A stretch of 17,070 bases of DNA. Source: a virus. The position numbers and the translations under genes are program-made. How positions within the stretch are numbered: position 1 is the stretch's first letter; each line of letters begins with the position of its first letter. The DNA lies in the IMG/VR virus record IMGVR_UViG_3300044546_001014. One strand, given 5' to 3'. Positions 14,335-17,070 of the stretch are shown piece by piece. The notes under the pieces are model-generated. The model had not been told where the DNA came from. It worked only from the letters and a program-made list of their open reading frames with translations, and made no database searches.

Positions 14335-14937
14335 CTATGTGTTGGACATTGCGTCAACAACAATCCGCTTGACAACCTTGGCCAAACCAGGATTTACAAT
14401 CAGGGCATGTGGCATGATGTTGTGACGGATATGGTTGCGCATGAACCTGGTGTCCATGTTGCTGGGATCACCCCACCAAGGCACCTGATTCTTCTCACAC
14501 CAACTCTGCAACTGACTCTTGGTGGTTGTGAGAAAGGGTCTCACAATATTACCATTTTGATAGGCAATGGTGTGATGTTTGCCATGCAGGCAATTGAACA
14601 AGTAGGTTTCCATGCAGTCATCCAGGTGATGAGCTGTGACCACAGTGCCTGGCAACTGGTGGAACCAGGAAATTCTCTGGTTGCGCCAAAATTCTTCCTG
14701 GCTTTCATGCTTGGGTTTGTTGGCTTCCAGCTTGCCCAGCAACAAGGGAATATCCCGCCTGGCACAATAGGCTGTGAGATTTTGTTCACACATGTGCCCA
14801 TAGAAAGTTTGATGATTGAAGTAGACAACTGTGACATCATGGCGCCTCTTGAGGAAATCCAAGGCTGCCATACTGTCTACGCCACCAGAACATGCCACAT
14901 ACAACCTTGGCGGCAGTGGTGCAACAATTTTGATCAT
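14335..14937 (-). CDS. TilS-like PP-loop ATPase (N-terminal catalytic domain of tRNA(Ile)-lysidine synthetase; the C-terminal tRNA-binding domains are absent)
   Basis: The PP-loop is VACSGGVDSMAAL. TVVTAHHLDDCMETYLFNCLHG matches the TilS AQHLDDQCETFLLALKRG block. IVRPFLTTTKSQLQSWCEKNQVPWWGDPSN matches the TilS IRPLL..R.EL..WA...L.W.EDESN block. Confidence 0.75.
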   Translation of the reverse strand: MIKIVAPLPPRLYVACSGGVDSMAALDFLKRRHDVTVVYFNHQTFYGHMCEQNLTAYCARRDIPLLLGKLEANKPKHESQEEFWRNQRISWFHQLPGTVVTAHHLDDCMETYLFNCLHGKHHTIAYQNGNIVRPFLTTTKSQLQSWCEKNQVPWWGDPSNMDTRFMRNHIRHNIMPHALIVNPGLAKVVKRIVVDAMSNT

Positions 14938-14940
14938 CTA

Positions 14941-15087
14941 TCAAAATTCCATGTTTTCGATTGCCATGACCCATTTTTGGATATCAATTTCATAAAACCC
15001 TGCACAGTTGACATCCACATGTTGTGCCTGTGCCTGAGATACGCCTGCTGAAAGGATCACAGCAGCTAGAGCCAGAATTTTCTTCAT
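14941..15087 (-). CDS. small predicted secreted or periplasmic protein (48 aa) with a Sec-type signal peptide
   Basis: This ORF is not in the supplied track. It reads MKKILALAAVILSAGVSQAQA|QHVDVNCAGFYEIDIQKWVMAIENMEF. An AAGGAA sequence lies 8 nt upstream of the ATG. Its stop is 3 nt from the TilS-like start, suggesting translational coupling. Confidence 0.5.
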   Translation of the reverse strand: MKKILALAAVILSAGVSQAQAQHVDVNCAGFYEIDIQKWVMAIENMEF

Positions 15088-15106
15088 TTGATGGTTCCTT
15101 GGAACC

Positions 15107-15125
15107 AGGGGCAAACGATTTGCCC
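15107..15125 (-). other. stem-loop in the 5' leader of the 48-aa ORF (intra-operon)
   Basis: An 8-bp stem (ggggcaaa / tttgcccc) has loop cga and lies immediately upstream of the SD. It has no classic U-tail. Confidence 0.3.
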
Positions 15126-15168
15126 CATTTGTTCACAAACCTAACAGCAAACTAATGTTATGTCAAAC

Positions 15169-15900
15169 TTATCTGTAGGGATTGGATCCTGCAAGACCAC
15201 GATCACGCAGGAATTGCTCGGGATCTTGTTTGCTTTGTTTGGCATCGTATTCTGCATCTGCCCTGTATTGGTCCCAAACGTCAGCAAGATATCCATAGGG
15301 ATCAGTTTTGTGTTCTTTTTGGAACTCTTGCATTACCAAAGGATACACCATTACCTGCATCCAATCTCGCCAATCCAACCAAGATCTTGGATCAGTGTTG
15401 TTTCTAATATCCCACAAATCCATGTCAGGATTGCCAAACATGGCTTGTTGTGACTGAGGATCTCCATGACCTTTGATCACATCGTTGGCTATCTGTAACC
15501 ATGCATCATGTGGATCACCATCTGGAAAAACATCACCCATGGCCCAAGTGAACCTTTCGCTCATGTAACGGGCTAGATGTTTAAGAGCCTGTTTGGCTTG
15601 TGTTTTGGCACCTGTTCGGGGTCCACCTGGCATGGATTTTTTGATTTCTATCTTGCCCTTGAGCTTGGCCAGCACATCCTTGATGACTTCTTCTGGTTTG
15701 ACACTACCCAGGCTCCAGTTGATGCCCACACGGATCATCCTCTCCAGATCAGCTTTGTTGATCTTGCCTGGCATTGCTGCTGCTTTTTGCATCACCACAT
15801 CAGCTAGGTTGGCGATCCTGCTATCATAGTCTTCTGTGATAATTGTATTTGCGCTGCTTTCAATCAGCTGTCTGTAGTGTTGGAGATCTTGTATGGTCAT
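15169..15900 (-). CDS. hypothetical protein (about 243 aa)
   Basis: The start is at the ATG at 15900 with AAGGA-N6-ATG; the listed 15906 start is a TTG. It is Trp/Asp-rich and no motif is recognised. Confidence 0.5.
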   Translation of the reverse strand: MTIQDLQHYRQLIESSANTIITEDYDSRIANLADVVMQKAAAMPGKINKADLERMIRVGINWSLGSVKPEEVIKDVLAKLKGKIEIKKSMPGGPRTGAKTQAKQALKHLARYMSERFTWAMGDVFPDGDPHDAWLQIANDVIKGHGDPQSQQAMFGNPDMDLWDIRNNTDPRSWLDWRDWMQVMVYPLVMQEFQKEHKTDPYGYLADVWDQYRADAEYDAKQSKQDPEQFLRDRGLAGSNPYR

Positions 15901-16172
15901 GCTCAATCCTTGCCATAAATGATAGTTTATTTATCAGGATCTTTGTTGATGCATGGCCCCACAACCCCGCCCACATCACGATGGAACTCAACTTTGGTGC
16001 CCATTTTATTGTTAGCACTCAGTTGTTTGTCTGAGTTGACTTTCTGATGTGGAGGATTGACCTTACACCTGAACAACACATATTCCATCTTGCCTGCTGA
16101 TACCTTTTTTTGCTCTTGGTTTGTATCAACAAGTCAAATATAGCGGTATCAGCCACATGTGTCAATGTGTTT

Positions 16173-17070
16173 TTACACCACTCGGAAATTTTTGAATTGC
16201 CAGGGATCAGTTGTGTCCACATCTTCCACAAACAACCTGCCACGATCTTTGAGTGGAGTCCAATCAGTCCAAGAGCCAGTCATTTGCCCCATGTAGGGAT
16301 CTGTTATGGCTAGGATTTGTTCATGAGGCAGTTCATCAGCTTCCACAATACCCAGCATGGGATTGTCAATGGCATACAAAATGCCTGCCAGCACTGGGGC
16401 CACCACTTGTAGGCTGGTGGCATTGTTGTAGGGGGCTAGAGATCTGGCTGTATCAATGTCCAGTTGGCTGCCATACCAGTAGGCATAGTGATTGCCGTTG
16501 AAAGTTCCCATCAACAACACCCCCAGTTCATCCATGCCATCCTCAATTTCATTGACAATCAAACGCTGATGTGTTTGTTGTTGGAAATTTTTACCTGCCA
16601 TTTCATGAATGCTCAGCACAGCACTGTCACAGGGGTGATAGGCATAGTGAACAGTGGGTCTGTAATAATGATTGCTGAAATAATCACCAATGCTGATACT
16701 CTCATTGTGAGTGATGATCCATCCACGATATTCTCCCTCATTGGGTGTCCAACTGCGGCATTGTGTCACACATCCAGGTCTGTTCAGCCAAATGGCTGTT
16801 TTGCATCCCCAGCTGAATCTGTTGCCATCTGTGGGAAACATCTGTTCGTGCGTTCCCCAGCTCATTTCACTGGGTTGCAGTCCCTCACTGACAAATCCAT
16901 CAATACTCCAGGTATTGACAAATTCATCTCTTTGTTTGGGGGCTCTAGGACGTTGAGTGTCTCTTTCAGCAATGTGGATCACCTTCAATCCCAATGTCTG
17001 GGCCAGTTTGCTCCATGCTTGCTGGGTTTGGGGAGGTGCAGATATTGCATGGTTTACCTGGGCAGCAACA
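16173..17070 (-). CDS. hss: homospermidine synthase (HSS), C-terminal ~298 aa; the N-terminus lies beyond the window edge
   Basis: The frame is open to the window end; the listed 'M' is a TTG. Blocks GLKVIHIAERDTQRP, VNTWSIDGFVSEGLQPSE, ITHNESISIGDYF, YRPTVHYAYHPCDSAVLSIHEM, DELGVLLMG..NHYAYWYGSQL, NATSLQVVAPVLAG, GIVEADEL and DPWQFKNF match bacterial and chlorovirus homospermidine synthase, as judged from recalled sequence. Confidence 0.7.
   Translation of the reverse strand, partial: VAAQVNHAISAPPQTQQAWSKLAQTLGLKVIHIAERDTQRPRAPKQRDEFVNTWSIDGFVSEGLQPSEMSWGTHEQMFPTDGNRFSWGCKTAIWLNRPGCVTQCRSWTPNEGEYRGWIITHNESISIGDYFSNHYYRPTVHYAYHPCDSAVLSIHEMAGKNFQQQTHQRLIVNEIEDGMDELGVLLMGTFNGNHYAYWYGSQLDIDTARSLAPYNNATSLQVVAPVLAGILYAIDNPMLGIVEADELPHEQILAITDPYMGQMTGSWTDWTPLKDRGRLFVEDVDTTDPWQFKNFRVV

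Follow-up and report, generated by a model that had tools for sequence, protein, structure and literature searches.

The 200-amino-acid (aa) protein considered here is encoded on the minus strand of IMG/VR record IMGVR_UViG_3300044546_001014, a stretch of 17,070 nucleotides (nt) referred to throughout as the window, and its closest described relatives are the tRNA(Ile)-lysidine synthetases (TilS) of cells and a set of viral proteins bearing the same name. Cellular TilS enzymes of type I (E. coli, G. kaustophilus) and type II (A. aeolicus, M. smegmatis) share with it the motifs SGGxDS, HHxxDxxET, RP(L/F)L, DxSN and RNxxR, but carry in addition a first C-terminal domain (CTD1), a reader of the anticodon stem, and, in type I only, a second (CTD2), a reader of the acceptor stem; the phage protein has neither. 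Recent literature recognizes types I and II only, both of which carry one or more appended domains (PMC11947777, PMC12514573), and deletion of CTD2 has been found to cost the cellular enzyme both efficiency and discrimination at position 3:70 (PMC11947777).

Virus-encoded TilS has already been reported, as annotation, in the phages MIJ3 and PA5oct (PMC6892783), in the Ralstonia jumbo phage RsoM2USA (PMC8504454) and in chloroviruses (PMC7589089). The putative TilS of PA5oct and MIJ3 (Wroclawvirus) belongs to the same family as the window protein: it comprises about 200 aa and the N-terminal domain only, is annotated as tRNA(Ile)-lysidine synthetase and lies a few kb from a tRNA cluster, although it is found in another phage lineage and host and has neither a homospermidine synthase (HSS) nor an MVP-like gene as a neighbor. 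In that study the function of TilS was stated to be unknown, and neither the absence of the C-terminal domains nor any connection with tRNA(CAU) was taken up (PMC6892783). RsoM2USA encodes, besides a TilS of 349 aa, an aminoacyl-tRNA hydrolase and a suppressor tRNA(CUA) (PMC8504454). Chloroviruses encode TilS in 39 of 41 genomes, beside viral tRNA sets, where it has been read as an aid to AUA decoding when the codon usage of the virus departs from that of its host (PMC7589089). With its type II length, the RsoM2USA protein exceeds that of the window, and both it and the chlorovirus proteins are likened to the window protein by description only. In the literature searched, no report was found of a TilS family that is N-domain-only throughout or that is physically paired with Ile2-type tRNA(CAU) genes.

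Two further systems provide points of comparison. HSS is known from phages and other viruses, including phiRSL1, Motura, PBCV-1 and the Imitervirales, and is encoded by chloroviruses as well; some phage HSS genes form a cluster with one for an ATP-grasp-type amide ligase, and the study describing these enzymes mentions no link between HSS and TilS (PMC9992855). Archaeal TiaS, the agmatidine synthetase, reaches an outcome like that of TilS, in that a primary amine is placed on C2 of C34 of tRNA-Ile(CAU) so that AUA is read, with a decarboxylated amino acid, a polyamine precursor, as the donor; its catalytic fold and mechanism are unrelated to those of TilS (PMC12069591), and the likeness is one of analogy alone, of relevance here to the possibility of a polyamine donor.

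The window gene joins an already annotated but uncharacterized phage TilS family. The window itself is phage DNA: it encodes TnpB, an HNH endonuclease and a tail fiber with collagen repeats and an S74 chaperone, and the contigs related to it are viral. When 50,697 phage records were searched for DNA nearly identical to it, there was no match, and the phage is known only from metagenomes. An earlier interpretation made from the letters of the window (hereafter, the sequence-only reading) had placed the gene in a five-gene operon concerned with the host tRNA pool; how its claims fared is described alongside the results that bear on them.

Identity and fold of the 200-aa protein

The gene under study is the following open reading frame (ORF):

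14335-14937, minus strand: TilS-like ORF, 200 aa (PF01171, TIGR02432)

In Pfam, its product matches the PP-loop family PF01171 (E = 1.7e-30; 106.5 bits against a cut-off of 27), and in NCBIfam it exceeds the curated cut-off of TIGR02432, the TilS N-terminal equivalog domain (122.5 against 93.6 bits), with residues 12-176 aligned over profile positions 2-189 of 189, which is the whole model. The full-length TilS equivalog NF007942 reaches just 56.3 bits against a cut-off of 606, and past the N-domain there is no Pfam or NCBIfam match, the protein stopping at residue 200 and the MVP-like gene starting 40 nt on. Sequence matches in the PDB are to TilS only (1wy5, 3a2k and 1ni5). An AlphaFold2 (AF2) model built from an alignment of 35 family members (pLDDT 95.8, pTM 0.90) finds TilS/MesJ of E. 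coli and Aquifex as its best five Foldseek matches (E ~1e-12, TMq 0.79-0.87), with TtuA next and LarE, GMP synthase and QueC likewise ranking below TilS. Models of other PP-loop families score poorly: TtcA (18.1 against 272 bits) and LarE (15.5 against 150 bits) fall far under their cut-offs, and QueC-type models are weak (21.9 bits in PHROG, 23.4 bits for QueC in PADLOC). Scores under cut-off and lower fold rank therefore exclude an identity as QueC, TtcA/TtuA, LarE or GMP synthase, and the check proposed in the sequence-only reading, a grouping with QueC, TtcA or GMP synthase, came out negative with TilS ranked top.

The residues expected of a TilS catalytic domain are in place. The PP-loop reads S17-G-G-V-D-S22, and the TilS motifs H103-H104...D107...E110-T111, R133-P134-F135, D157...N160 and R167-N168...R171 are all present and show no variation across either the phage family or 78 cellular TilS. 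Among 45 columns conserved in the N-domains of those cellular enzymes (n = 78), 32 are retained, including the PP-loop, every catalytic motif, R85 and R88. Taken together, profile, fold and motif data identify the protein as the complete PP-loop catalytic domain from the N-terminal part of TilS, with the C-terminal tRNA-binding domains missing, and the description of it in the sequence-only reading as TilS-like and confined to the catalytic PP-loop domain is borne out.

A virus-restricted family of short TilS proteins

A large protein search returned 991 homologue clusters, the best 120 of which are 177-256 aa long with a median of 201. By tblastn the family is found in Pseudomonas jumbo phages of the PA5oct/MIJ3 type (42.9% identity over 97%, E = 2e-44) and also in uncultured phages of 635 and 642 kb, and in IMG/VR relatives occur on 494-563 viral contigs, many of them 100-335 kb long. 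In GTDB, where each of 185,579 species of bacteria and archaea is represented by a single genome, identity did not exceed 34% even for the top matches, which were ordinary full-length TilS with a median length of 442 aa. Judged from these searches, the family is virus-only, belongs to large phages and is distinct from cellular TilS. The short form of about 200 aa is a trait of this whole virus-restricted family and not a local truncation; the notion that a reduced copy is special to this locus does not hold.

The gene is also widely distributed and intact. The exact TilS protein was found in 97 index blocks of a public assembly collection, and 18 contigs were obtained on which the protein could be read. 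Relative to a homologue that is 89% identical (locus L002), dN/dS is 0.31; this value, together with the intact ORF and motifs, indicates that the gene is kept under purifying selection in the window lineage. For comparison of neighborhoods, 176 loci were assembled, which represent 103 lineages at 95% TilS identity.

tRNA genes beside TilS

Adjacency to tRNA genes was counted over the 101 lineages with enough flanking sequence; the lineages are related, such that the counts do not represent independent events. In 11 of them only 10-58 nt separate the TilS ORF from a tRNA gene of the same strand, which is located downstream in seven and upstream in four. Every one of these 11 adjacent tRNAs has the anticodon CAT, as compared with 24 of 177 among all tRNAs of these loci. 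Silva et al. reported that G3 or A3 with C70 or T70 marks tRNA-Ile(CAT), while tRNA-Met and tRNA-fMet have C3:G70 (PMC1635315). In the acceptor stems of the adjacent tRNAs, G3:C70 or A3:U70 is present in 10 of 11, U3:A70 with C4:G69 in one, and C3:G70 in none. The family is commonly located in tRNA islands, and directly abuts on a tRNA(CAU) gene in roughly one lineage in ten. The recurrence of this pairing, in two arrangements, is the best available evidence for the family acting on tRNA-Ile2(CAU) and supports such a role. One of the adjacent tRNA(CAT) genes (L026, 10034-10121) measures 88 nt and bears a long extra arm, which is unusual for Met and Ile tRNAs.

Larger genomes offer further examples. 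In PA5oct (L096, MK797984.1), three tRNA(CAT) genes are located at distances of 5-10 kb from TilS. Two of them, at 9559-9632 and 10040-10113, form a pair with identical D, anticodon and T arms; the third is initiator-like, with a C1xA72 mismatch. In the 635-kb phage LR745206.1 (L097, 354005-394583), the TilS-N gene is flanked by two tRNA arrays. Within 20 kb there are 32 tRNAs, including three with anticodon CAT and two tRNA-Ile(TAT), and two alternative routes to the reading of AUA may coexist in this phage.

The window is different. ARAGORN called no tRNA in it, Rfam identified no RNA family, whether at the gathering threshold or at E<=5, and a short-word BLAST search with the tRNA(CAT) genes of relatives detected no remnant. 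That the phage nonetheless encodes tRNAs follows from near-identical contigs, which carry tRNA-Leu(CAA) and tRNA-Gln(UUG) a few kb beyond HSS. What the window does contain is a decayed tRNA:

9556-9645, minus strand: decayed remnant of an amber-suppressor tRNA(CUA), directly after an MCD-like gene, recognized by alignment with the tRNA(CUA) genes of relatives

An intact tRNA(CUA) occupies the same position in three relatives (L006, 15935-16009; L012, 12466-12539; L026, 11882-11957), while in the window copy the acceptor stem and anticodon loop are destroyed. This remnant is probably the element that the sequence-only reading had called a tRNA-like RNA; of the nearby PTH2 gene and tRNA-like RNA to which that reading pointed, the former stands as a weak homologue in another transcription unit and the latter probably as this relic only. 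In another relative, L178, a release-factor-like gene with PCRF and RF-1 domains, interrupted by an in-frame TGA, lies just upstream of HSS (4141-4845). Together, the suppressor tRNAs and the release-factor-like gene hint at stop-codon reassignment, or its regulation, in the clade. The region is rich in translation accessories, a point on which the sequence-only reading is supported: PTH2 is encoded in the window, relatives carry genes for tRNAs and for suppressor tRNAs, and L178 has the release-factor-like gene.

Layout of the minus-strand unit

The TilS-like gene is surrounded by the following features, given in order of transcription:

16173-17070, minus strand: HSS gene, 3' part, 298 codons, running past the window end (ORF list, PF16653)
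16137-16165, minus strand: sigma70-like promoter, TTGACA-17-TATATT, 11 of 12 consensus positions matched, directly after the HSS stop codon
15927-16088, minus strand: 53-aa ORF or leader region (ORF list; called as a gene in L092-L094 and L178)
15169-15900, minus strand: 243-aa orphan ORF with ATG start (ORF list)
14941-15093, minus strand: 50-aa ORF with an N-terminus typical of a Sec signal peptide (ORF list)
11805-14294, minus strand: MVP-like ORF, 829 aa (MVP_shoulder, Vault_3)
11752-11777, minus strand: intrinsic-terminator-like hairpin with an 11-bp stem (8 G-C pairs), a loop of 4 and a T-rich tail

The five co-directional genes described in the sequence-only reading do exist, but they are accompanied by a sixth ORF of 53 aa and by a conserved sigma70-like promoter after HSS. 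The spacers measure 84 nt (HSS to 53-aa ORF), 26 nt (53-aa to 243-aa ORF), 75 nt (243-aa to 50-aa ORF), 3 nt (50-aa ORF to TilS) and 40 nt (TilS to MVP). Of the distances of 3-40 nt that had been given for the five genes, only the last two fit, the others being 75 nt and the 272 nt that separate HSS from the 243-aa ORF, an interval that holds the 53-aa ORF and the promoter-like site. Shine-Dalgarno sequences (AAGGA/AAGGAG) precede the 243-aa, 50-aa and MVP starts, that of MVP being AAGGAG, so that the good ribosome-binding sites claimed for every gene are confirmed for these three but not for TilS, whose start lacks a clear one and lies 3 nt beyond the stop codon of the upstream ORF. The single strong terminator was correctly recognized: in a consensus scan the hairpin at 11777-11752 follows the MVP stop by 27 nt.

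In L178 both hexamers of the promoter and their spacing are kept while the flanking bases have diverged, consistent with a promoter function of the putative site at 16165-16137. Because this conserved site directly follows HSS, HSS probably lies outside the primary transcription unit of the other genes. The predicted unit would be a mosaic, in which a promoter, the 53-aa ORF, the 243-aa orphan, the 50-aa ORF, the TilS domain, the MVP-like gene and a terminator would be co-transcribed. The first two thirds of the 53-aa ORF, within the region 15927-16165, are strongly conserved at the DNA level in L178 (6260-6520), and the C-terminus of the ORF is frameshifted; this region may represent a leader RNA instead of a protein gene.

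The 50-aa ORF as a deletion scar

In L006 and L012, an intact 266-aa gene of the R2K clade of ATP-grasp proteins, matching PF14243/PF18299, is located between HSS and TilS, and its stop codon falls 3 nt before the TilS start. By tblastn, the 50-aa ORF of the window matches both the R2K C-terminus of these loci and a 78-aa ORF of L002. It is composed of the first 29 codons of the 78-aa ORF, which encodes a secreted protein and is intact in L002, and the last 22 codons of R2K. The joint can be traced to a 276-bp deletion at an 11-nt microhomology, present in the window, L092, L094 and L095 relative to L093 (9652-9927); in L093 the TilS protein is identical to that of the window, and R2K is already reduced to its C-terminal remnant. 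The supposed signal-peptide micro-protein thus does have a signal-peptide-like N-terminus, but comparison of these strains identifies it as a recent, strain-level deletion chimera in which a remnant of R2K persists without the ATP-grasp domain. The arrangement of HSS and R2K in L006 and L012 resembles the published clusters of phage HSS with an ATP-grasp-type amide ligase, except that the ligase here is of the R2K clade, and not a glutathionylspermidine synthetase, and that the window keeps 22 codons of it.

Other loci have lost R2K in other ways. In L009 an independent in-frame deletion leaves the first 56 and last 9 R2K codons, and in L178 a mini-ORF of three codons stands alone ahead of TilS. 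Despite these different deletions, the geometry of stop codon, 3 nt and ATG is kept in the window-type strains, L009 and L178. Because this arrangement survives independent deletions, it probably reflects selection for translational coupling into TilS.

Turnover of the gene neighborhood

HSS adjoins TilS only in the window's own clade, in which TilS proteins are 52-100% identical; about 95 other lineages lack it in the vicinity of the gene. MVP adjoins TilS in three of about 103 lineages, namely the window-type strains, L178 and L179; the order HSS...TilS...MVP is retained in L178 and L179. In L002 neither HSS nor MVP is present, and no protein neighbor is general across TilS-N loci. A coding sequence of PA5oct annotated as saccharopine dehydrogenase-like, located within the tRNA cluster, was considered as a remnant of HSS and rejected, because its similarity to HSS is not significant (E = 0.62). 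Because the neighbors of TilS turn over in this manner, with MVP in three lineages and HSS in one clade, the five genes are best described, from comparison of gene orders, as a shifting mosaic in a translation-accessory island and not as a conserved functional operon, and the proposed coupling of all five does not stand.

Neighboring genes

The HSS fragment matches PF16653 (E = 4.4e-23, 83.2 bits), with the N-terminal NAD domain lying beyond the window; in near-identical contigs (L092/L093) the full-length protein has 467 aa. Full-length orthologues encoded in L006, L009, L012 and L178 share 69-84% identity with it, and that of L006 (73% identical) matches the HSS structures 2ph5 and 4plp in the PDB at E = 1e-134 to 8e-144.

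The 243-aa protein has no match in Pfam, NCBIfam, PHROG or PADLOC. Two homologues were found in databases, and relatives 31-97% identical are encoded in L002, L178, L009 and L006. It is all-helical, with a conserved FPDGDPHD motif and a C-terminal NPYR, and its AF2 model (pLDDT 75.6) returned no fold match at E<0.6. On these data the gene is classed as a clade-restricted orphan.

The 829-aa protein is MVP-like by Pfam cut-offs, exceeding those of PF11978 (MVP_shoulder, 69.4 against 25 bits) and PF17795 (Vault_3, 30.7 against 28.8 bits). More than 6300 homologues were found in metagenomes and bacterial metagenome-assembled genomes and on contigs of 380-570 kb. Its codon usage, with ATA at none of 45 Ile codons and a G+C content at third codon positions of 0.60 as compared with 0.37-0.58 in the other window genes, suggests a different origin or expression level.

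Elsewhere in the window, the following features were identified:

8798-9265, plus strand: weak PTH2 homologue (Pfam, 29.2 bits against a cut-off of 23), in another transcription unit
45-1193, plus strand: TnpB/IS605 OrfB gene, also present in L009
1245-1742, minus strand: HAD_SAK_2 domain protein of the 'Swiss Army Knife' RNA-repair class (domain match)
2137-2742, plus strand: ferritin-like gene, with homologues within 5-10 kb of TilS-N in 32 of 176 loci
3441-7364, plus strand: tail-fiber ORF with collagen repeats and S74 chaperone, 1307 aa (domain matches)

With the HAD_SAK_2 protein and the weak PTH2, the region gains two more genes related to RNA and translation. The ferritin-like protein is the window protein that recurs in the most TilS-N loci. 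Inside the tail-fiber ORF, at 4307-5729 (plus strand), a 51-nt unit is repeated 27.9 times with 83% matches.

Proposed function and its alternatives

By analogy with cellular TilS, the protein would be a phage-type minimal tRNA(Ile)-lysidine synthetase composed of the PP-loop catalytic domain by itself. C2 of cytidine 34 in a tRNA with the anticodon CAU would be adenylated, and the epsilon-amine of lysine would then attack the adenylated C2 to give lysidine, such that the modified tRNA would read AUA and not AUG and would be charged with isoleucine and not methionine. Where enzyme and substrate gene travel together, AUA decoding would become independent of the host. In the window lineage the adjacent tRNA would have been displaced, with a tRNA-Ile2 from another part of the phage genome, or that of the host, as the substrate, and translation of the TilS domain would probably be coupled to the upstream ORF. 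Canonical lysidine formation on an Ile2-type tRNA(CAU) of phage or host, securing AUA decoding during infection, is the reading that we consider likely.

Several observations weigh against it. Cellular TilS needs CTD1 and CTD2 for efficient catalysis and for rejection of tRNA-Met (PMC11947777), and a profile of CTD1 and CTD2 built from 59 cellular TilS matched none of 19,774 ORFs in about 170 phage loci and the window. (A split enzyme is likewise excluded, as this profile matched no ORF near the gene in any of those loci.) The two matching tRNA(CAT) genes of PA5oct differ in the acceptor stem alone, C3:G70 (Met-type) in one and G3:C70 (Ile2-type) in the other, and an enzyme without CTDs is not expected to distinguish such twins. 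Across the family, one Arg that is invariant in cellular TilS, after the HxxHxLR strand, has been lost, His118 replaces a conserved Arg, and a Gly-Leu (GL) loop is deleted. No tRNA(CAU) gene was found in the window or in the approximately 30 kb spanned by near-identical contigs, AUA accounts for just 11% of Ile codons in the window genes, and published reports on the phage family consist of annotations only (PMC6892783).

The sequence-only reading had viewed the five genes as one functional operon that manipulates or repairs the tRNA pool, perhaps as a counter-defense against anticodon nucleases or tRNA-targeting immunity. The genes are indeed co-directional and share a single terminator, PTH2 and HAD_SAK_2 are encoded nearby, relatives carry suppressor tRNAs and a release-factor-like gene, and the order of HSS, TilS and MVP recurs in L178 and L179. 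Yet gene content near TilS turns over, to the point that L002 has neither MVP nor HSS; the micro-protein is a deletion chimera of strain level; a conserved promoter separates HSS from the remainder; no meaningful defense or anti-defense match was obtained, PADLOC giving a weak QueC-type PP-loop match only; and the recurrent partner across the family is an ordinary type of TilS substrate, tRNA(CAU). We therefore regard a counter-defense operon as very unlikely. No more probable is the use of TilS chemistry with another amine or target, for example transfer of the homospermidine made by HSS to C34 in a manner like agmatidine formation, or modification of a cytosine in other RNA or DNA. That HSS stays beside the gene throughout the window clade while intervening genes change, that an ATP-grasp amidoligase stands between the two in L006 and L012, that the family deviates at the invariant Arg, at His118 and in the shortened loop, and that there are no CTDs to bind the body of a tRNA would all be compatible with it, but HSS is missing from the vicinity in L002 and in some 95 other lineages, the sequence deviations are family-wide and not tied to HSS, phage HSS has already been explained as a supply of polyamine for replication and translation (PMC9992855), and adjacency to Ile2-type tRNA(CAU) fits canonical lysidine. 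A more specific form of this proposal, that of a third, minimal class of C34-modifying PP-loop enzyme which would need no domain for binding the tRNA body and, in the clade that keeps HSS (ancestrally with the ATP-grasp ligase), would attach a polyamine in place of lysine to C34 of a phage tRNA(CAU), has a slimmer chance still.

Similarly slim is the prospect of a non-discriminating enzyme that lysidinylates all CAU tRNAs, host tRNA-Met included, or that forms heterodimers with host TilS, and so reprograms or stops host translation. Such an activity might be anticipated from the relaxed acceptor-stem discrimination of cellular TilS upon CTD2 deletion (PMC11947777) and from the PA5oct twins with their differing acceptor stems; it would, however, harm phage translation too, conservation of all catalytic motifs argues against a decoy, and the close pairing with tRNAs of the Ile2 type points to a dedicated substrate. 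Least probable of all is that the gene is a decaying relic in this lineage, its role gone after loss of the partner tRNA, the suppressor tRNA and R2K. While the missing adjacent tRNA(CAT), the decayed tRNA(CUA), the reduction of R2K to a scar and the modest use of AUA would fit such decay, the ORF is intact with all catalytic residues, dN/dS is 0.31, the identical protein recurs in many metagenomes, and the start-codon geometry has outlasted independent deletions. Lysidine formation on an Ile2-type tRNA(CAU) hence remains the reading that we favor.

Significance

For the locus itself the outcome is mostly deflationary, and its interest rests on a question at the level of the family, which merits the notice of those who study tRNA modification. 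Hundreds of phage lineages possess the TilS catalytic domain alone, often set against an Ile2-type tRNA(CAU) gene. Should the improbable attachment of a polyamine prove true, it would constitute a new tRNA modification, the equivalent in a bacterial virus of agmatidine in archaea. As it stands, the family provides a natural pair of enzyme and substrate with which to ask how a 200-residue enzyme discriminates between tRNAs, a question sharpened by the tRNA(CAT) pair of PA5oct, and one that bears on how phages free AUA decoding from the host.

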